64,000 bases of DNA from Candidatus Saccharimonadales bacterium (GTDB lineage Bacteria; Patescibacteriota; Saccharimonadia; QS-5-54-17). Shown one piece after another: positions 2,730 to 55,973 of this stretch. Every line of letters begins with the position of its first letter. Within the stretch, counting starts at the first letter, position 1. The translations under genes and the position numbers were made by a program. Location of the stretch: assembly GCA_040903985.1 (NCBI GenBank), contig JBBDUI010000002.1:599633-663632 (forward strand), read 5' to 3'. The notes below the pieces were generated by a model. It was not told the origin of the DNA. It did no database searches and worked only from the letters and a program-made list of their open reading frames with translations.

Positions 2730-4232
2730 CTAATAGTGGCTAGCCTCTGGGGCTAGGAGCAGAGCCTCGGGCAGAGAATGTGGAAAAGTTATTGTAGATA
2801 GTTGTACGACACTTGTTGAGTAGGGTGTGAAGTACAGCTTGCCGTTAGGAGCTGCACACGCCCCTGAATTACTGATCCCAGAGCCGCTATAGATCTCCTC
2901 GACTTCTCCGGTAATCAAGTCACAAGCCACAAAGGCTGCCGGGACCGCGCTGCGATAGAAGTAGAGTCGTCCATCGTGCCCTAGCGCACCTGATCGGAAT
3001 ACCGCAGTTGTGGCGGGATGGACGAACTCTGCAGTCTGAGTCCACGGGTCAATACGAATATACCCCAGAGTCGCTGCAGTTGAAGAAGAGGGAAACAAAT
3101 ACACTGCACCATCAGGGCCAACACACCCGCCCACCCACTGACGGTTCGATTCCCCTTGAGCTCGGTCAAGCCCATAGTTTGTCTGCCAGGCTTCTTCAGT
3201 CTCGGGATCAATAACCAAGATGCCGTCCAGCGTATTTTGCAGACCATATGGAGCACAGTAGATCAACCCGTCAGGACCGAGCACTCCACCATGATATTTG
3301 AAGGACGCAGGCATATCTAGGCCCGGATCCCACCGCTTGGCGGTCCCTGCCACAGTGTCGATAATCAAGATATCGGTAGCGTTATACGGGATGCCCACAA
3401 TCTTGCCGGTAGCTGTTACTGCTGACCCATACCACTTGCCAGTGCCCGATAGGTCAAGGCCAAAGTTCTCAAGAGTAGCGGTGTTATCAGAAGGGTTAAT
3501 CACCAAGGAGAACTCACTGCTAGAGGGCATAGAGTAGACCTTGCCATCCAGGCCTAGTTGACCGCCCATCCATTTTGTGGAATCTGACATATCTAGTCCG
3601 AAATTTTCGAGAGTTGCCGTGTCGTTTGTCGAATCCACAACGATTACATTGTCGAAATTGCGAGGAAGCATATAGATCCGGCCATCAGGCGTAAGTACGC
3701 CACCACCCTCACATCGCTGACCAAAGGAGACCAAGCCTAGACCGTAGTCATTCATTGTAGCTACAGCAGAGGCTCCCTGTCGACGCAGGCCATGAACGTG
3801 TTGCTTCAGCAGGGAGACATAAGGCCCTTCATCTACCGTGGCAGAGAGAGGGGCCTTATCATCCAGTGCACTCTGGAGCCCGGAGACGGCGGCTATAGTA
3901 TGTACGCTACTGCCACTTGCATGATCGGAGAGTTCACTATCGGTGTAGCTCTCAGCTGTAGCTTCAGCTGCCGCTTGGGCCGCACCCACTAGACTGTCAA
4001 CGTAGGTCTTAGTTACGGCGTCTTGGGGGTCTTCTGGATCGGCTAGTCCGAGAATGCGGTTACTACTAAGTAATAACGGTCCAGTTAGAGTGCCGCCAGA
4101 TAAGCCAAGCTTACTGTCGATGTCACTACTGCGCTTTAGGCTACCGTCTGAATTCAGCTCGACACTCAAGAACTCGTTGAGAATATCACCCCAAACACCT
4201 TTATCCGAGCCAGGTATAGGTAGTCGAGCCAT
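2730..4232 (-). CDS. Tail-fibre-like protein (500 aa) with a C-terminal beta-propeller-like repeat domain.
   Basis: MARLPIPGSDKGVWGDILNEFL leader and GGTLTGPL...DAVTKTYVDSL collar. C-terminal half has about 6-7 repeats of approximately 47 aa with a G-x-L-x-P-D-G-x-I/V-Y-x-x-P pattern. Confidence 0.7.
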   Translation of the reverse strand: MARLPIPGSDKGVWGDILNEFLSVELNSDGSLKRSSDIDSKLGLSGGTLTGPLLLSSNRILGLADPEDPQDAVTKTYVDSLVGAAQAAAEATAESYTDSELSDHASGSSVHTIAAVSGLQSALDDKAPLSATVDEGPYVSLLKQHVHGLRRQGASAVATMNDYGLGLVSFGQRCEGGGVLTPDGRIYMLPRNFDNVIVVDSTNDTATLENFGLDMSDSTKWMGGQLGLDGKVYSMPSSSEFSLVINPSDNTATLENFGLDLSGTGKWYGSAVTATGKIVGIPYNATDILIIDTVAGTAKRWDPGLDMPASFKYHGGVLGPDGLIYCAPYGLQNTLDGILVIDPETEEAWQTNYGLDRAQGESNRQWVGGCVGPDGAVYLFPSSSTAATLGYIRIDPWTQTAEFVHPATTAVFRSGALGHDGRLYFYRSAVPAAFVACDLITGEVEEIYSGSGISNSGACAAPNGKLYFTPYSTSVVQLSTITFPHSLPEALLLAPEASHY

Positions 4233-7213: not shown

Positions 7214-7822
7214 ATGACGTTTCAATACCGTTGGCCTTGGACCTATAAACTTTTTATTCCTCTTACTCAGCGGAAGCATGTGCTTGAAGCTTTCAAGCAG
7301 GCCGTGGGGGTTGACGTTACCGTTCTTGATGTTGCAGGTGGATTTGGCCATATGAGACGCGCCATGGATAGCTCTGTTATCTACCGAGGGATAGATATTA
7401 ATAAGACATTCATTGCCTATGCACAGAAGCGAGGCACAGACATGCGTTATGGTGATATCTTCTATCCTTCCGCGTATGAATCATCGGATGTCGTTGTCAT
7501 GTCGGACGTGCTACATCACATACCTCGTGATAAATGGCCGGATTTATTGCGCCTTACCCTTAGTAGCGCTCAGCAAAGACTTGTCATTCTGGAGCCGGCC
7601 TTCTTGGGCGTATCGAATCGTAATCGCATGTTCGGTCCTCTAGTGGACTGGTTATTTAAAAAGCTCGACAATGACGGCACTGGAGAAGTTGAGACCTGGT
7701 ATACGAAGGATGAGTACGTCGCTATGCTCGAAGGTGGGCTCGGGCTCAAAGAGGCTGATGAGTTTAGTTTTAGTTGCGAGGATGTATTCCCGTACCTTTT
7801 GATTACTTACAGTAGGAAATAA
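7214..7822 (+). CDS. Class I SAM-dependent methyltransferase.
   Basis: Motif I LDVAGGFG followed by acidic D (GIDIN). Post-I motif VVVMSDVLHH. Confidence 0.65.
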   Translation: MTFQYRWPWTYKLFIPLTQRKHVLEAFKQAVGVDVTVLDVAGGFGHMRRAMDSSVIYRGIDINKTFIAYAQKRGTDMRYGDIFYPSAYESSDVVVMSDVLHHIPRDKWPDLLRLTLSSAQQRLVILEPAFLGVSNRNRMFGPLVDWLFKKLDNDGTGEVETWYTKDEYVAMLEGGLGLKEADEFSFSCEDVFPYLLITYSRK

Positions 7823-7989
7823 TATGAGTGAATCTAACTTCGGCTGATACAGATATCCCGAACACTTACATCCAGATGAGCTTGTATCAGTTATCGTTCT
7901 GCCGTTGCAGAAGGGCAGATACTTTCAAGACCTTAAAAACAGGTCCGTTGCGTAAGGCGCGGTGATTTACTACAATTAATAGGCGTTAT

Positions 7990-8065
7990 GCGGGTGTAGC
8001 TCAGTTGATAGAGCGCGTCCTTGCCAAGGACGAGGCCACGAGTTTGAGTCTCGTCACCCGCACCA
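7990..8065 (+). tRNA. tRNA-Gly (anticodon GCC).
   Basis: Acceptor GCGGGTG/CACCCGC. Anticodon arm CGTCC-TTGCCAA-GGACG. T-arm ACGAG-TTTGAGT-CTCGT. CCA is encoded. Confidence 0.85.
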
Positions 8066-9580
8066 AAGTTGAGTTTTAGCGCCGTCAGGCGCTTTTTCTT
8101 TTTCCTCAATTACCAAGTTAAAAGGGTAATTCACGGTATATGACAAGTTTTTATCGTTCAGTTTAAGGTTAGAAACTAGGAATCCTAAGAGCTTGGAACG
8201 CTGCCCCTCATCTGCAAGCTGAAACAGCTCTGAAACTCGACTTACTAAATCTAACAGATATGAAGCGGTTACTAAGAAGTCCTTATTCCCTCTGGTTAGA
8301 ACATTTAGCCTATCATTGAGCTGTTGCTGTCTATTTGTTAATGTCTCTACAATTTTATCGTGTTGTTCTGGTGATATTTTTTCATCTACTAGTTTTTCAA
8401 ACCACATTTCAATTTTTTTGTCGATTGAATCATATTCCTCTCGAACTGATAGTAACGACTGTGAGTAATATTTTTGTTGGTCGTCGTGGTTATCTTTTAG
8501 TTCTTTAATAACTTTGTTTAATAGCTTTTCCGGAATATTTATCCTTTTTACAAGAGCTTCCATAGAGCCTAGTACGAGCGATTCTGCGGTGTTGGGGTTG
8601 CTACACTTAGAATTTGCACACTTGAGGTACACCCAACGTTTACACTGGAACGGGGAAATAGTACGACCACACTTACCGCAGCTTAGAATATCGCTAAAAT
8701 TGAAGTTTAGACTATCCCATTTGGTTTTCATTGATTTGCGCTTGTCTTTAATGAGCTGACACCTATTAAACAAGGCTCGGTCTATTAATGGTGCGTAATT
8801 ATGAGGGTAATCTTTTCCTTTCTGAGTCATCATTCCGTAATAAAACTTATTATTAATTATAGCTTCGACAGCCCCTTTGGATAGGGTAGTTTTACCAGTT
8901 TTACTGCTCGTAAAACCAGCTTTTGCTAATTCTTTAGCGATAAGGCTGTACGGCATTCCTATTGCCCTTAGCTCAAACGCTTTTACAATGTAATGCGCTC
9001 TTTGCTCATCGACCACAATATCTTTTAATGGCTTGTTGGGATTACTAGTAGGTATAGATATGTTTTGATATCCTATTGGCGCCCTGTGAACCCATATACC
9101 ATCATTTAACATCTGTTCAAAACGACGCTTTACATTGTCTCGGCTTGAATCGGAATAGTACTTAGCAAGCAGCATTCCTATACCAAGCCTGAATAAGTCT
9201 GTGGCTGGCGAACTAGATGATATGAATAAATTGTCTGATGGAAAATGTAGTTCTATTTTATCTTTTTCCACGAGCTGTCCCATTATTCTCACTTCTCTCT
9301 GTGAGGCGTCACGAGTAAAACGGTCTATTTTATCAAAGACAATTATCGCCTGTTCATTCAAAGACTGGATTTCATCTTCAATCAAAGAAGCGAATTTTTG
9401 CCTGGCGTCCTTGTAGGCACTTTCATCGAACTCATGGTATCGCCATTCTTTGTCTTTATAGTTCAAAGTTCTAGCATAGTTTTCAAGCCGTTGCTTCTGT
9501 GCGGGTAACGCTTTACGTTGCTGCACGTCCGATACCCTAGCGATTAATAGAATTGGTTTTTTATTGGTAGTAGCATTCAT
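8054..9580 (-). CDS. Large serine recombinase (integrase). Its stop codon overlaps the tRNA-Gly 3' end.
   Basis: N-terminal resolvase domain (ILLIARVSD catalytic Ser). Recombinase domain. C-terminal zinc ribbon CGKCGRTISPFQC...CANSKC. 508 aa. Confidence 0.85.
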   Translation of the reverse strand: MNATTNKKPILLIARVSDVQQRKALPAQKQRLENYARTLNYKDKEWRYHEFDESAYKDARQKFASLIEDEIQSLNEQAIIVFDKIDRFTRDASQREVRIMGQLVEKDKIELHFPSDNLFISSSSPATDLFRLGIGMLLAKYYSDSSRDNVKRRFEQMLNDGIWVHRAPIGYQNISIPTSNPNKPLKDIVVDEQRAHYIVKAFELRAIGMPYSLIAKELAKAGFTSSKTGKTTLSKGAVEAIINNKFYYGMMTQKGKDYPHNYAPLIDRALFNRCQLIKDKRKSMKTKWDSLNFNFSDILSCGKCGRTISPFQCKRWVYLKCANSKCSNPNTAESLVLGSMEALVKRINIPEKLLNKVIKELKDNHDDQQKYYSQSLLSVREEYDSIDKKIEMWFEKLVDEKISPEQHDKIVETLTNRQQQLNDRLNVLTRGNKDFLVTASYLLDLVSRVSELFQLADEGQRSKLLGFLVSNLKLNDKNLSYTVNYPFNLVIEEKEKAPDGAKTQLWCG

Positions 9581-51517: not shown

Positions 51518-53101
51518 CTAGTTAAGACTAGTTGCTTGGGGTCTGCGCCGCCGAGAGATGAGGCTGCGGATATCGTAGCGCCATTCCCAGACACCATAGC
51601 CAGCGGCTAAGAGTACAACTACCCCGGCCACCCACCAGGAAAGTGGCGTACCTGTTGATTCGACTTTTATATCTTTAACGCCAGCTATAGTGCCGTCATT
51701 GGGAGCTCCGACTCGGCGACAGCGATTAGTCTCCGGATTACGCTCTTGATCGGGTCCGCACGGCACCAGTTCAGAGGTAGCGGCTGCAATCTTTCGACAG
51801 CGATTAGTGTCTGGGTTGCGCTCTCTACCGGGACCGCAATCGGCTAGCTCTGAGGTAGTAGGAGCGATATTACGACAGCGGTTGGTCTCCGGATTGCGCT
51901 CCCGTCCCGGTTCACAAGGGATTAAACTGGAGGTCGCAGTTACTACATTTCTACAACGGTTAGTCTCCGGATTTCGACTTTGTCCTTCTGGGCAAGGGCG
52001 GAGTGGTAATATCTCATTTAGTGCATTCGGTGTCGGAGTATATGTTAGTGCCCAGTCATCTCCATCCAGCCAAGCCCAGGCTGCATCGTCCGGCATGGCA
52101 GCCGGATAGCTGGCACTGTATAGCTCGTCCGTATCGGAATTAAGTAGAAATACCGTACCGCCAGAAGAAATAGTAAGCCAGACGTCGGTTTCGTAATCGT
52201 AGAAGGCGCGGTAGCTCCCCGGTGACAGTGTAATATCGTTGAACCAATAGATATTATCGTTGTGGGTGCTTTGGAGTCCGCAGCCCGCTAGATCAATAAT
52301 GTCCGTGGTGGGGTTATAAATTTCTATGAACTGCCGGCCGGTCGCTGCCCCTTCCGGATTAGCGAAGATCTCCGATATTACGACTTCTTCACAGGGTGAG
52401 TCGGAGCTACTCCCTGTATCAGTCTCTTCATCGTCCTCAATTTCGTCCTGGGCCGTCGTGCAGGCCTGCTTGAGGCCGGGCTGCGGGGTTTCACTAACAT
52501 GGAAATCGTGTGAATTATCTCGAGTATCGACTATATCGTCTCCATTAAAACAGCGATGGATCGACTGACCAGCTGCTGGTGGAGGGGCTGGAGCTCCGAG
52601 GTAATATTCCGGCATACCATAACCTACCATATCGACAACAGCAGCGGACTCATCTAATAGCTGTAGAGTACCGTCGTTATAATTAAGCCCTAAAGTCGAC
52701 CCGAGCGTGATAAAAAAGTCCGCCTCAGCCAAGTAGCTCTCTCGACTGACGATAAAGTACTCACCCGGCTCTATCTCATAGTGTAGTTCAAGCGCAGGGT
52801 CGTCGTTAAATTCGGCGATGAACCGACTGCTACTACCACTTTTATTAGTGAACTTAAGCCGCCAACCGTCTAGCGATACTGTCATCTCACTTGCGTTGTA
52901 CAGTTCGACAAATTCATCCGTACCAACTGAGCCGCCAGCATTATTCACGCCACGAGTTTGTAAGCCGCTAATTAATACGACGGGATCCTCAGGCAGCGGA
53001 TCGGTGACGTCTTCACTGGCATAAATCTGGTTATTCACTGGCATAAGCCCCAGCGTTAAGACAGCAAATATAGGCAGTATAAGTTTCCCCATAAACTTCA
53101 C
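51518..53101 (-). CDS. Secreted, membrane-anchored protein with two lamin-tail domains (LTD) and about 3.5 Cys-containing 26-aa tandem repeats.
   Basis: Signal peptide. LTD signatures DEFVELYNAS...LDGWRL and RQFIEIYNPT...LAGCGL. Repeats CxPGRERNPETNRCR. C-terminal TM. Confidence 0.6.
   Translation of the reverse strand: MKFMGKLILPIFAVLTLGLMPVNNQIYASEDVTDPLPEDPVVLISGLQTRGVNNAGGSVGTDEFVELYNASEMTVSLDGWRLKFTNKSGSSSRFIAEFNDDPALELHYEIEPGEYFIVSRESYLAEADFFITLGSTLGLNYNDGTLQLLDESAAVVDMVGYGMPEYYLGAPAPPPAAGQSIHRCFNGDDIVDTRDNSHDFHVSETPQPGLKQACTTAQDEIEDDEETDTGSSSDSPCEEVVISEIFANPEGAATGRQFIEIYNPTTDIIDLAGCGLQSTHNDNIYWFNDITLSPGSYRAFYDYETDVWLTISSGGTVFLLNSDTDELYSASYPAAMPDDAAWAWLDGDDWALTYTPTPNALNEILPLRPCPEGQSRNPETNRCRNVVTATSSLIPCEPGRERNPETNRCRNIAPTTSELADCGPGRERNPDTNRCRKIAAATSELVPCGPDQERNPETNRCRRVGAPNDGTIAGVKDIKVESTGTPLSWWVAGVVVLLAAGYGVWEWRYDIRSLISRRRRPQATSLN
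51717..51995. repeat. About 3.5 copies of an imperfect 78-bp tandem repeat inside CDS 51518..53101.
   Basis: Unit starts at 51717, 51795 and 51873 (cgacagcgattagtctccgg...). Confidence 0.75.
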
Positions 53102-53168
53102 AGCGTAATCTACTCTTTTTAATCTACCTGCTTACTTTTAGCGTATGGCACCGTTAAGAACTGGGTCA

Positions 53169-53214
53169 AATAATCTTCAAAAAGTGTCCGATCGGACACT
53201 TTTTGAAGATTATT
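53169..53214. promoter_or_regulatory. Perfect 46-bp palindrome (AATAATCTTCAAAAAGTGTCCGA|TCGGACACTTTTTGAAGATTATT). A half-site copy lies at 53702..53729, upstream of the same gene.
   Basis: Read directly and verified base-by-base. The palindrome overlaps the stop of 53213..53689. A 26-nt half-site recurs in its promoter region. Confidence 0.7.
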
Positions 53215-53689
53215 ATTGCAAGATCCGAGCTACAAATATGCGGACGTATTTTTCTAAGTCAGAGGCCCTACACTCCTGCTTCAAATATTGGCCATAGCGG
53301 TAGCGCGACACCCAGACACTTTTCTGTACTTGTTCGAATCCAAGCTCGCGGAGTAAAGTGCGGATGAAGCGTCGTTTATGCCGGTCCGTCTCCGGAATGT
53401 CGAACGCCACTACCAAGTAGCGGCCGTCTTTAAGCTTAGCTGGTTCACCTGCTTGCAGCTGACGCCGTCCTTCTTTGGTAAGTGACGGTCTGCGCTGCAA
53501 GTCGAGCTCTATCAGTCCTGATTTTACCGAGCGGTAGTAAGCCGACTGTAAGGTCTTTTTCTTGTATTTCGAGTGTTTTTCCAGTTCATTAAAGAACTTA
53601 TTGGGTGTGAAAGACAACAGAAGATTAGGCCGTGTATACGGGATTAAAGCTTTGAGTATATAAGCCGTGCTGGGGCTTAAGCGCTTCAT
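53213..53689 (-). CDS. Small basic protein with a Cas2/VapD-like or PaaX-like C-terminal pattern. Likely a DNA-binding regulator.
   Basis: YLVVAFDIPETDRHKRRFIRTLLRELGFEQVQKSVWVS resembles the Cas2/PaaX_C beta-alpha-beta core. Flanked by the palindrome and its half-site. Confidence 0.35.
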   Translation of the reverse strand: MKRLSPSTAYILKALIPYTRPNLLLSFTPNKFFNELEKHSKYKKKTLQSAYYRSVKSGLIELDLQRRPSLTKEGRRQLQAGEPAKLKDGRYLVVAFDIPETDRHKRRFIRTLLRELGFEQVQKSVWVSRYRYGQYLKQECRASDLEKYVRIFVARILQ

Positions 53690-53755
53690 ACTTTATTATC
53701 TTCAAAAAGTGTCCGATCGGTCAAATTCTGCAAATGAATTACCTAGTTAGAAGGG

Positions 53756-55228
53756 TTACACTATAGGGTTGTAGCGACGGAAGTTATGTTTGGTCACCCG
53801 CCAGAGGTAGACCATGAGTAGTGTGATTAGGACGTAGCTAATCGCTACAGCTGTGACGGAAAAGTTTAGTTCGCTAGTGGCATAGGGTGATAGGGCTAGC
53901 CAGTCGGTTACGGTCGTCATGCCGAGGAGTAAGGCGTAGGCCGGAGCACCAAAGATAGAGGCTAGAGAGGGAAGGAAGGCCGCTCCGAGACCGCTGAGTA
54001 GGGTCAGTCCCATTGTAATTGGGATGAAGGGTAGGAGTAGGAGGTTAGCCAGTAGTGCGAGTGGTGAATACTGGCCGAAGACGAGGGCTACGACAGGAAA
54101 GGTTGTAATCTGGGCTGCAATTGTGCCGACAGCTATATGGCGAACGGCTCCAGGTTCTTTGTCCGAACCCCAGAAGAAGTCGTGCAATAAAGGTGCTAGG
54201 ATGATTACGCCGGTAAAAGCGGTGAAAGAGAGGAACCAGCCGATGTCACCCCAGATAACCGCCGGATCGATCAAGACAGTTGTGGCTGCAACAGATAGTA
54301 GTAATACTATCGGGTGAATCTGTCGGCCATAGTACCAAGCTAGTAAACTTAAACTGGCTACGAGAGAAGCACGTACCATCGAGGTACTAAAGCCGGTTAG
54401 CAAAAGGAAGCTAGCGATCACCGTGAGGCTAAAGAAAGTGGTTAGGTATTTTGAGATCGGCCGGAGTAGTTTATGAAAGTAGCGGGTCACAATCGTGAGA
54501 TGAAAACCACTAGCTACGACGATATGGGCCAGTCCAAGTAGTCGTAGCTGCTGGCTTATATCACCCGGCAGTAGTCCCCGCTGCCCGGTTAAGTAACTGA
54601 CACCGAGCAGGGACTGTGGTTCGGGAATAGCTAGCCGGACATAGTCGGTGAATCGATCTCGGACACGCCGCGCAATATCTCCAGGGCTAGGCCTGATAGC
54701 TTCAATTAGAGTGGCGCGGAAGAGGGTGGCGGACATCGAACCGAAACCAGGCTCGAGCTGACCCTTGAGCTGAATGTGATCACCGCGCTTGAGTTCTATT
54801 TGGGTCATGGTGCTTGTCCAGACCTCACCTGGGAGCCGGCGGCCGTCGATAGTTATGTGGTTGAGACGGAGCTGGAGCTCGCCGCGACTACTGTAGGTGG
54901 TGTCATCGGCTATATGTCCACTGAGATGAACCATCTGGCCAAAGTAAGGTTCATACTTAGCTAGACGACTATCTGCTACAGAGCCGGAGTATAGACCGAG
55001 AATGAGGCCACTAATGAATGCGCCGATAACTAACCACCGCTGGCGCCCTAGCAACAGTGGTAATAGTAGAGCTATCACCACTAAGAGCCAGCGACTGTCC
55101 GTAAAAGTATAGTCGGTTAGCACTGGAATTAATGCCGTCCCAGCTAGGATGCCGGCCGCTAGGCCCGTTAGATGCCATGAAAAGTGCAGGGGCTTATTGA
55201 GTAGAGTGCTTAATTCAACCTGCCGCAT
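53756..55228 (-). CDS. comEC: ComEC/Rec2 DNA-uptake channel protein (competence domain, no beta-lactamase domain).
   Basis: N-terminal DUF4131-like region followed by a ComEC polytopic membrane domain. 490 aa. Confidence 0.7.
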   Translation of the reverse strand: MRQVELSTLLNKPLHFSWHLTGLAAGILAGTALIPVLTDYTFTDSRWLLVVIALLLPLLLGRQRWLVIGAFISGLILGLYSGSVADSRLAKYEPYFGQMVHLSGHIADDTTYSSRGELQLRLNHITIDGRRLPGEVWTSTMTQIELKRGDHIQLKGQLEPGFGSMSATLFRATLIEAIRPSPGDIARRVRDRFTDYVRLAIPEPQSLLGVSYLTGQRGLLPGDISQQLRLLGLAHIVVASGFHLTIVTRYFHKLLRPISKYLTTFFSLTVIASFLLLTGFSTSMVRASLVASLSLLAWYYGRQIHPIVLLLSVAATTVLIDPAVIWGDIGWFLSFTAFTGVIILAPLLHDFFWGSDKEPGAVRHIAVGTIAAQITTFPVVALVFGQYSPLALLANLLLLPFIPITMGLTLLSGLGAAFLPSLASIFGAPAYALLLGMTTVTDWLALSPYATSELNFSVTAVAISYVLITLLMVYLWRVTKHNFRRYNPIV

Positions 55229-55973
55229 CTATCGGTTCTTCGATTGGTAGTACCTGGAGCGGGCAGGTGTTAAGTACGCGCCGCATCGCAGCTAGTTCAG
55301 TTCGAGTGATCCAGAGTAGATACTTTAGCTTGATGGCAGTTTGACGGGCTACGTAACGGCAGCGATAGTTTGGGTGCGGCAGCCAATGGGCGGCATCGGC
55401 ATCACCTTTATCCATATTAGCTTCTGCTGAGGTAGCGATTAAGTTTAGGGGGTCGTTGTAAAAGGTGTGACGCTCGGCCGCGCTTAGGTCCTGGGCTCCC
55501 TTGCGCCAGGCATCAGAAACGGCGACGATATGGTCGATGTGTACCGTATCGGTCTGATTACCGTAGATGAACCCGACTTCAGTCTCGGTATAAGGGTCAG
55601 GATTAAGTGTACCGGCTAGAACCTGGCAATTATCAGCATCTAAGATAATATTTCTCAGATCACGCTGAAGAATACGGTTACGCATATCGCAGCCGTCGAC
55701 TATGGCCCAGCCTGGGCTGAACCGTTCCCGACTGTAGCCGTGACGCGAGAGAGGGTCGGCTACAGGTAGGGTTTGGAGCGCATCACTGGCTAGCTGGTAG
55801 GGTGTATCAGGATCAAGCGGTAACTCGGATGCGGGTGCATTCTCACCGCTAGAGAACCAGTCAAGCGAGTTGAGATTTGTAAGGCTAATGTAGATGAGTA
55901 GCAGTAGCATGAGCAGTGCAACGGCTGAGAAACGCCGGCGTCGGGCAATGTAGGTGGATTGATCATCGTTCAT
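55215..55973 (-). CDS. Membrane-anchored extracellular His-Me finger (HNH/DUF1524-type) nuclease.
   Basis: N-terminal TM. DHIVAVSDAWRKGA...NDPLNLIATSAEANMDKGD matches the DUF1524 HNH motif. Coupled to comEC. Confidence 0.55.
   Translation of the reverse strand: MNDDQSTYIARRRRFSAVALLMLLLLIYISLTNLNSLDWFSSGENAPASELPLDPDTPYQLASDALQTLPVADPLSRHGYSRERFSPGWAIVDGCDMRNRILQRDLRNIILDADNCQVLAGTLNPDPYTETEVGFIYGNQTDTVHIDHIVAVSDAWRKGAQDLSAAERHTFYNDPLNLIATSAEANMDKGDADAAHWLPHPNYRCRYVARQTAIKLKYLLWITRTELAAMRRVLNTCPLQVLPIEEPIDAAG

Follow-up and report, generated by a model that had tools for sequence, protein, structure and literature searches.

A palindrome-bracketed, invertible gene for a small PaaX-like protein in Patescibacteria: a candidate autorepressor

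In REPtrons, RAYT/TnpA-REP genes, whose products have an HUH/Y1 (IS200/IS605-type) fold, are flanked by cognate REP palindromes, in hundreds of copies. E. coli PaaX represses its own gene by occluding RNA polymerase at Px, where its 39-bp site reads TGATTC-N27-GAATCA (PMC9493321). Here we analyze a stretch of 64,000 nucleotides from a Candidatus Saccharimonadales bacterium (assembly GCA_040903985.1, contig JBBDUI010000002.1, positions 599,633 to 663,632; the whole stretch is what we call the window), in which a gene for a 158-aa protein is bracketed by two related palindromic sites. The protein joins a winged helix to the Cas2-like middle domain of PaaX, the paired sites recur around its relatives, and the unit has been inverted in place. 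The reading we favor, with a probability of roughly one half, is that the protein is an autorepressor, and that the second of its cognate sites doubles as a terminator hairpin. The features on which the argument turns are the following, in window positions.

53213..53689, minus strand: gene of the 158-aa protein, a winged helix plus a PaaX_M/Cas2-like domain.
53169..53214: downstream site, a perfect 46-bp palindrome, AATAATCTTCAAAAAGTGTCCGA followed by TCGGACACTTTTTGAAGATTATT, with centre CGATCG.
53695..53740: upstream site, made up of one arm copied exactly over 23 nt (53698-53720) and a second arm that has decayed, with centre CGATCG at 53714-53719.
53695..53724, minus strand: predicted sigma-70-type promoter of the gene, -35 TTGACC (53724..53719), 18-nt spacer, -10 GATAAT (53700..53695), a 10/12 match.
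53164..53171: 8-mer GGTCAAAT (ATTTGACC on the gene strand) at the outer edge of the downstream palindrome, with a second copy on the inner edge of the upstream site (53719-53726).

The N-terminal winged helix spans about residues 1-80/85. Residues 88-155 form a beta-alpha-beta-beta-alpha-beta domain that matches Pfam PF20803 (PaaX_M, "PaaX central Cas2-like domain") with E=2.4e-16 and 60 bits, for a cut-off of 24, and paralogues match the same family with E = 1e-15 to 1e-23. A first-pass annotation of this DNA had described the C-terminus as Cas2/PaaX-like. Pfam, TIGR01573 and Foldseek agree with that, only the domain is the middle one of PaaX, PF20803, and not the PaaX C-domain. Two Cas2 models also reach the protein, PF09827 (CRISPR_Cas2) with E=8.9e-6 and 26.2 bits vs. 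a cut-off of 23.8, and the NCBIfam cas2 model TIGR01573 with 26.4 bits vs. 24.5. A match just above the cut-off explains the GenBank name "CRISPR-associated endonuclease Cas2", which is a threshold-level misannotation. Defence-system models gave only weak Cas2 matches (PADLOC). The C-terminal helical effector (phenylacetyl-CoA) domain of PaaX has no Pfam match in the 158-aa protein, and hardly any chain is left for it beyond the Cas2-like domain, the last residue being 158, so the effector domain is absent. The signature of the PaaX N-terminal winged helix, PF07848, has no match in the window protein either, and its sole appearance is at E=0.036 in a distant member of the family (P0104).

An AlphaFold2 model (mean predicted local distance difference test score of 86.7) has a winged helix-turn-helix (wHTH) followed by a ferredoxin-like domain, and the top solved structure in a Foldseek search is E. 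coli PaaX (8a39), matched over the whole chain, followed by Rv0674, by Cas2 chains for the C-domain and by MarR-type wHTH structures for the N-domain. Several Cas2/VapD homologues among these fold matches are deposited as endoribonucleases. A sequence search of the PDB with the single 158-aa protein found no match, and a profile search matched only Cas2 and MarR fragments. In the family alignment the motif FDIPE...R...Q.SVW is invariant, D97 and E100 included, and D97, which belongs to FDIPE, takes the position of the YDV/FDL strand-motif Asp when aligned to the matched Cas2 chains. In Cas2, that Asp is the metal-binding catalytic residue.

The neighbors in the window code for VanY, GmrSD_C, ComEC, an LTD protein and an ion channel (Ion_trans_2). 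There are no cas genes among the neighbors within 3 kb, no CRISPR-like array in the 64-kb window and no paa catabolic genes near the window gene; other loci have housekeeping neighbors (aspS, ndk, xerC/D, parAB, a rhodanese-domain gene). Having neither an effector domain nor a CRISPR context, the protein is a two-domain "mini-PaaX", neither a true PaaX nor a Cas2. The family comprises 84 clusters (50% identity) at E<=1e-30 and ~3,700 at E<=1e-10, mainly in Saccharibacteria and other Patescibacteria. No relative was found in the IMG/VR viral contigs, which leaves a viral origin without support.

The perfect 46-bp palindrome that the first-pass annotation had placed at the 3′ end of the gene is indeed found there, and it shares 2 nt with the stop codon (53213-53215) of the open reading frame. 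No other palindrome of the window pairs perfectly at more than 10 positions per arm. There are exactly three occurrences of the arm ATCTTCAAAAAGTGTCCGATCGG, the two halves of the palindrome and a copy upstream of the gene, whereas 100 shuffles gave 0 matches, and no further arm-like sequence with up to 7/23 mismatches lies elsewhere in the 64 kb. The upstream copy, 9 nt 5′ of the ATG, had also been noticed; it does lie over the predicted promoter, but it extends over 23 exact nt at 53698..53720 and not over 26 nt at 53704..53729. In register, the similarity to the palindrome covers 41 nt at 83% identity (53695-53735), which identifies the upstream element as a palindrome whose distal arm has decayed.

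The two sites differ as RNA. The downstream palindrome folds into a 21-23-bp hairpin (centroid -29 kcal/mol, z = -6.0), and the upstream site gives no hairpin (folding z = +0.8). In the window it is the half-site that overlaps the promoter, and the perfect palindrome that stands at the 3′ end. That the upstream site keeps its arm 23/23 but forms no hairpin favors the recognition of sequence over structure there. The downstream core is ordered as an A-run, GTGTCC-GATC-GGACAC and a T-run, so that the inner stem GTGTCC/GGACAC is followed by TTTTT; a consensus terminator scan did not call it. Just beyond it starts a putative promoter of the next gene (TTGACC 53169..53164, 18-nt spacer, TACGCT 53145..53140).

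The predicted promoter of the gene itself lies inside the upstream site, the -35 box being part of the decayed arm and the spacer beginning with the CGATCG centre, and it is conserved in the orthologous locus L003. A stretch of 5 nt separates the -10 box from the ATG, and the window gene has no Shine-Dalgarno sequence, which suggests a leaderless mRNA with a transcription start predicted accordingly close to the ATG. Related loci have a similar geometry: the centre of the upstream site is 25-33 nt before the start codon in 39/59, a -10-like hexamer stands 4-10 nt before the start in 48/59, and a Shine-Dalgarno-like sequence occurs in 9/59. In locus L004 the upstream site is within a divergent intergenic region, and hence it cannot be the terminator of a neighbor.

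How general is the bracketing? We compared 105 homologues of ~160 aa and 80 metagenome loci, and counted sites on 71-72 non-redundant loci. Of these loci, 57/71 have a CGRYCG hexamer in the 100 nt before the gene and 59/72 have one in the 60 nt after it, where the density in flanking DNA predicts 9.6% and 5.7%, respectively; 50/71 carry it on both sides. These hexamers are mostly CGATCG, then CGGCCG, and most of them are the centres of 20-52-bp palindromes. Within a locus, the two sites are cognate: with the central 12 nt set aside, they are 68% identical, vs. 39% for non-cognate pairs (p=1.6e-12). Distant members of the family (30-38% identity) are bracketed likewise, and in L045, which has two paralogues, each one is bracketed by its own type of palindrome. 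Paired cognate sites at fixed distances from start and stop codon are conserved features of this family. The earlier suggestion of an operator finds its support here, since the cognate palindrome of the promoter region recurs in 57/71 related loci with its centre mostly 25-33 nt before the start, and we predict that it is one.

Some further observations concern these loci. In L045 (1199-3490) the two mini-PaaX paralogues flank a gene for a XerC/D-like tyrosine recombinase, and the order ndk, family gene, xerC/D is seen again in L021, L042 and L047. L120 carries a distant family member and, 380 nt downstream of it, a perfect palindrome of 54 bp (3434-3487) with the same CCCACGGCCGTGGG core as at the stop codon of that gene; the DNA in between is AT-rich, with short TTTAGA/TTGAGT-like repeats and no called gene. 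In L063 (1570-1710) and L060 (1290-1440) a conserved ~150-nt leader, with a promoter TTGAAG-17-TAAAAT and no Rfam match, separates the palindrome from aspS. Known RNA families match neither this leader nor the palindrome sites.

By clustering the flanking genes, we find recurrent neighbors on either side of the family gene, with the gene in either orientation; all orientation comparisons are between lineages. In the context of a CBS-domain gene and aspS, the family gene has one orientation in 7 loci and the opposite one in 5. L063 and L060 group as sisters in all three trees (family protein, CBS-domain protein, AspRS), and their orientations are opposite, which requires at least two flips in this context. 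A blastn comparison of the two aligns the flanks in reverse and the 534-bp gene segment forward, and the alignments overlap within the palindrome. L008 and L004 differ by a further flip from L016 and L005. In these loci the unit lies between genes for a rhodanese-domain protein and an ABC transporter, and for this flip only the flanks aligned. There are at least three in-place inversions, and for L063/L060, the pair resolved at the nucleotide level, the breakpoints are inside the palindromes. We discarded another candidate in the parAB context, as the far-side neighbor is not shared and only the orientation relative to parAB differs.

The sites themselves come in three forms, T-run/A-run palindromes, A-run/T-run palindromes and T-run/T-run hybrids (types aCa′, bCb′ and aCb′), and an exchange at the centre would interconvert them. 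In L016 the outer halves of the two sites make a perfect 24-bp inverted repeat that is split by the cassette. We also observe several short-read contigs that break inside palindromes (the end of L002, the starts of L117 and L119, and the end of L090 with the start of L105), either an assembler effect or a hint of orientation heterogeneity in the population.

The idea of a mini mobile unit, also raised in the first-pass annotation, stands in part. Besides the inversions, the unit is absent from the ComEC-LTD junction in L111 and L113 (ComEC 50-54% identical), where the gap is 47 and 57 nt, with neither a family gene nor a palindrome, compared with 663 nt in the window. In the family tree the window and L003 branch next to the clade found in the rhodanese/ABC context, which implies at least one move of the unit. 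Within species, on the other hand, it stays in place: two proteins found on 24 and 19 contigs always have the same neighbors. The family tree tracks the trees of the neighbors and the contexts are clade-specific, from which it follows that relocation is rare. The two copies of the 8-mer are kept as TTTGACC in L003, and the ATTTGACC pair is either a direct repeat resembling a target-site duplication or two independent -35 boxes; it flanks the unit in the window and in L003, and the empty sites of L111 and L113 are too diverged to fix the junction for a check of such a duplication.

The palindrome also occurs away from the gene. We searched for the exact 18-mer CAAAAAGTGTCCGATCGG in a collection of other genomes (the window's own genome is outside it), and found it in 26 stretches, of which 16 come from Patescibacteria (Saccharibacteria, Uhrbacteria, Gribaldobacteria), for ~0.35 expected by our own estimate. 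Just 2 of these 16 loci are beside a family gene. The solo copies lie, for instance, between ruvC and ruvA, between WecG and gltX, between CARDB and a zeta toxin gene, after an MscS-like gene, and upstream of a comFC-like gene; the one between the convergent recG and radA is a 54-bp perfect palindrome. Patescibacteria genomes other than that of the window have 1-3 solo copies, and one metagenome-assembled genome (MAG) has 3 on 3 contigs. For two MAGs, the sites flanking the genome's family gene and its solo copy are cognate (L086 with L091, and L094 with L109). About 360 kb of flanks hold almost no copies. A low-copy, dispersed palindrome component exists in the phylum. The first-pass annotation had considered that the arm might turn out to be a generic repeat at many unrelated intergenic sites, and this is not the case in the 64-kb window; it is partly so elsewhere, where the identical 18-mer stands alone in intergenic DNA of other Patescibacteria.

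Three more observations belong with the solo copies. L007 was considered as an empty-site match for the recG/radA palindrome and rejected; it has recG beside the family gene but no radA. In L085 (1-55) and L097 (1-57), from a Saccharibacteria and a Gribaldobacteria MAG, an identical contig start of ~55 nt ends at the half-site CCCCGATCGGACACTTTTTG, after which the two diverge; a shared element may have its boundary here, or the match may be an artefact of assembly or binning. And sites of the palindrome family are noticeably often near genes of DNA repair or uptake (recG, radA, ruvC/ruvA, comFC-like, uvrC/uvrA and comEC; L090/L105, L095, L110, L004 and the window), in a sample whose size does not allow a repair/competence regulon to be told from chance in small genomes.

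The mechanism that we favor is as follows. The protein would be a minimal PaaX-type DNA binder, a winged helix with a Cas2-like dimerisation domain and without the effector domain, and its dimer would bind long palindromes centred on CGATCG. As the upstream site covers the region from -35 to -10 of the gene's own, putatively leaderless promoter, binding would shut the promoter by excluding RNA polymerase. The perfect palindrome after the stop codon would be a second cognate site, and given its strong transcript hairpin with A and T runs, it probably also terminates or insulates transcription before the promoter of the next gene. As either site is an inverted repeat in itself, recombination between the two is possible, which explains the repeated flips in place; inversion would be a by-product of having two self-complementary sites. 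Binding, repression, termination and the transcription start site are what we infer, and the sizes and positions of the sites fit the mode of action of E. coli PaaX (PMC9493321).

Several observations weigh against this autorepressor. The arms differ in almost every locus yet stay palindromic, and this symmetric divergence looks more like selection on a hairpin or cruciform structure than on a fixed sequence read by a protein. By inspection, no clear pattern of covariation appears between residues of the recognition helix and the class of site. A pure dimerisation domain would have no need for the invariant Asp that matches the Cas2 motif. Only 14/59 related loci have a strict TTG -35 at 16-19 nt. 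A regulator with sites only around its own gene in 64 kb has no obvious target, and the solo copies of other genomes are mostly 17-70 nt after stop codons, not in promoters. DNA looping between the two sites was tried and is without support: the centres are 517-675 bp apart, and these distances do not favor whole helical turns. Finally, our literature search found no paper on the family, nor on PaaX together with Cas2-like domains or Patescibacteria. Four of these matters the autorepressor leaves unexplained (the fast symmetric divergence of the arms, the conserved Cas2-motif Asp, the lack of other targets in 64 kb and the solo copies at 3′ ends), and because of them we keep two other explanations alive, both with low probability.

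One of them takes the palindromes to be low-copy hairpin or cruciform elements, and the wHTH-Cas2-like protein to be an enzyme that cleaves or exchanges their strands via the conserved Asp/Glu. It would maintain, invert, excise or disperse the palindromes, much as RAYT transposases do with the REPs that bracket their own genes. Cognate palindromes that bracket the gene, paralogues with families of their own, and invariant D97 and E100, with D97 aligned to the Cas2-motif Asp, all suit such an enzyme. So do the solo copies of the 18-mer in 16 Patescibacteria loci, mostly just after stop codons or between convergent genes and three of them on three contigs of one genome; the inversions (at least three) with the L063/L060 breakpoints inside sites; the site types aCa′, bCb′ and aCb′, as expected from exchange at the centre; the outer inverted repeat of L016, split by the cassette; and the absence of cassette and both palindromes from the junction in L111 and L113. 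The protein, however, has no recombinase or HUH fold, and we know of no strand-transfer activity of Cas2. The copy number is very low, with none elsewhere in the window and almost none in the flanks, the location is fixed within species over those 24 and 19 contigs, the family tree follows the neighbors in clade-specific contexts, viral contigs hold no relatives, and inverted repeats of 30-50 bp can invert without a dedicated enzyme. We consider such an enzyme unlikely. Rather unlikely, too, is the broader proposal that the wHTH-Cas2-like proteins of Patescibacteria are a new class of palindrome-associated enzymes, a Cas2-fold analogue of RAYT/REP that would cut or exchange DNA at CGRYCG, invert, excise and occasionally relocate its cassette, and seed solo palindromes after genes.

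The other explanation moves the control to RNA: the Cas2-like (RRM-like) domain would bind or cut the palindrome hairpin in its own transcript, at the 3′ end and also at the 5′ end where the upstream site is transcribed, and so affect mRNA stability or translation. The very stable downstream hairpin, the compensated arm changes between the window and its orthologue L003, and the fold matches deposited as endoribonucleases speak for it, as does a weak excess of G:T mismatches on the sense strand of downstream sites (14:6). Upstream mismatches have no strand bias (14:13), though, the upstream site of the window cannot fold, the predicted leaderless start would leave that site untranscribed, and the N-terminal domain is a winged helix of the DNA type; we find control at the RNA level improbable. 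Could the sites be ordinary transcription signals without a specific tie to the encoded protein, a bidirectional intrinsic terminator downstream and a symmetric promoter upstream? The window core, with its A-run, stem and T-run, does have the classical shape of a bidirectional terminator, and solo copies do follow stop codons and lie between the convergent recG and radA. But the sites are cognate within a locus, paralogues have different cognate pairs, and such pairing is not what plain signals would lead us to expect. In addition, the enrichment of sites is tied to this gene family, L004-type sites have a T-run before the stem and an A-run after it, which is not the shape of a terminator, the upstream site is found in divergent intergenic regions, and the terminator scan did not call the site, so we hold this possibility to be very doubtful. 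A genuine CRISPR-associated Cas2, as GenBank annotates, would have the two near-threshold models, the PADLOC matches and the NCBI name in its favor; set against the stronger PaaX_M match, an 85-residue wHTH ahead of the domain, the absence of an array from the 64 kb, and the neighbors both in the window and in related loci, it is hardly credible.

Some properties of the neighboring genes are worth recording. The GmrSD_C gene (a DUF1524-type nuclease) overlaps the start of ComEC (window 53756-55973), and the pair is kept in L111, L112 and L113, possibly a functional link of a DNA nuclease with a DNA-uptake channel. The LTD-domain protein (51518-53101, minus strand) has ~4 tandem copies of a Cys-containing motif, ...C.PG.ERNPETNRCR..., and Tandem Repeats Finder reports in its gene a repeat at 51717-51901 with a 78-nt period and 2.4 copies. 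In L113, the relative without the cassette, a TIR_2-domain gene (7563-8357) lies ~1 kb downstream of the LTD gene.

Returning to the autorepressor, the comparative sequence evidence supports reading the unit as a probable PaaX/Lrp-style autoregulator, in a palindrome-bracketed, invertible gene unit of an understudied phylum. We found no description of the mini-PaaX family in the searchable literature. Very few regulators are known in these organisms, and a conserved, self-contained unit of putative operator over promoter, gene and second site makes a concrete regulatory module with a predicted DNA motif. Automatic annotation of the family as Cas2 also inflates the counts of "orphan Cas2" in these genomes. 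And the inversions and solo palindromes raise the possibility of a Cas2-like domain that acts on palindromic DNA outside CRISPR. If the enzymatic explanation were true, this would be an enzymatic role on DNA hairpins, and it would bear on the origin of Cas2.

Among known systems, the best structural match is to PaaX (the phenylacetyl-CoA-responsive repressor of E. coli/Pseudomonas; 8a39, 3l09) and Rv0674 (3kfw), which likewise have a winged helix and then the Cas2-like middle domain PF20803. The ~39-bp spaced inverted repeat of PaaX over its own promoter also resembles the 30-52-bp palindromes over promoters here. Unlike PaaX (305-316 aa), the 158-aa protein is half the size, without the C-terminal effector domain or a match to the N-terminal PaaX signature of Pfam; paa genes are absent from its vicinity, a second cognate site follows the stop codon, and the Asp aligned to the Cas2 motif is retained. 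With CRISPR Cas2 and VapD it shares a C-domain of ferredoxin-like fold, with a hydrophobic-strand-Asp motif and a Q-S-V-F/W motif. Cas2, however, is a stand-alone protein of ~90-110 aa next to cas1 and an array, and here the domain is fused to a DNA-binding domain, with no cas1 or CRISPR context among the neighbors within 3 kb. The Lrp/AsnC (feast/famine) regulators are of similar length (~150-160 aa), have a winged helix and a beta-alpha-beta-beta-alpha-beta domain, and are typically autoregulated; our C-domain differs in scoring as PaaX_M/Cas2, there is no AsnC-type Pfam match, and the fold matches are weaker, with TM-scores of 0.25-0.28.

As for the DNA, REPtrons resemble these loci in having a single-copy, vertically inherited gene between cognate inverted palindromes, paralogue-specific families, and solo copies in intergenic 3′ regions. 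They differ in that the fold here is wHTH plus Cas2-like, with no HUH/Y1, the copies are a handful, and the upstream copy is the promoter of the gene. Invertons and lox/dif-type recombination sites with symmetric spacers are comparable in that a segment, enclosed by inverted repeats whose 6-bp centre is palindromic, occurs in either orientation while its neighbors stay the same. Unlike invertons, there is no invertase adjacent in the window and a XerC/D-like neighbor occurs in one clade only, and both orientations are seen between lineages, not within a population. The promoter here travels with the gene, so that flipping, unlike that of an inverton, would not switch the gene off.

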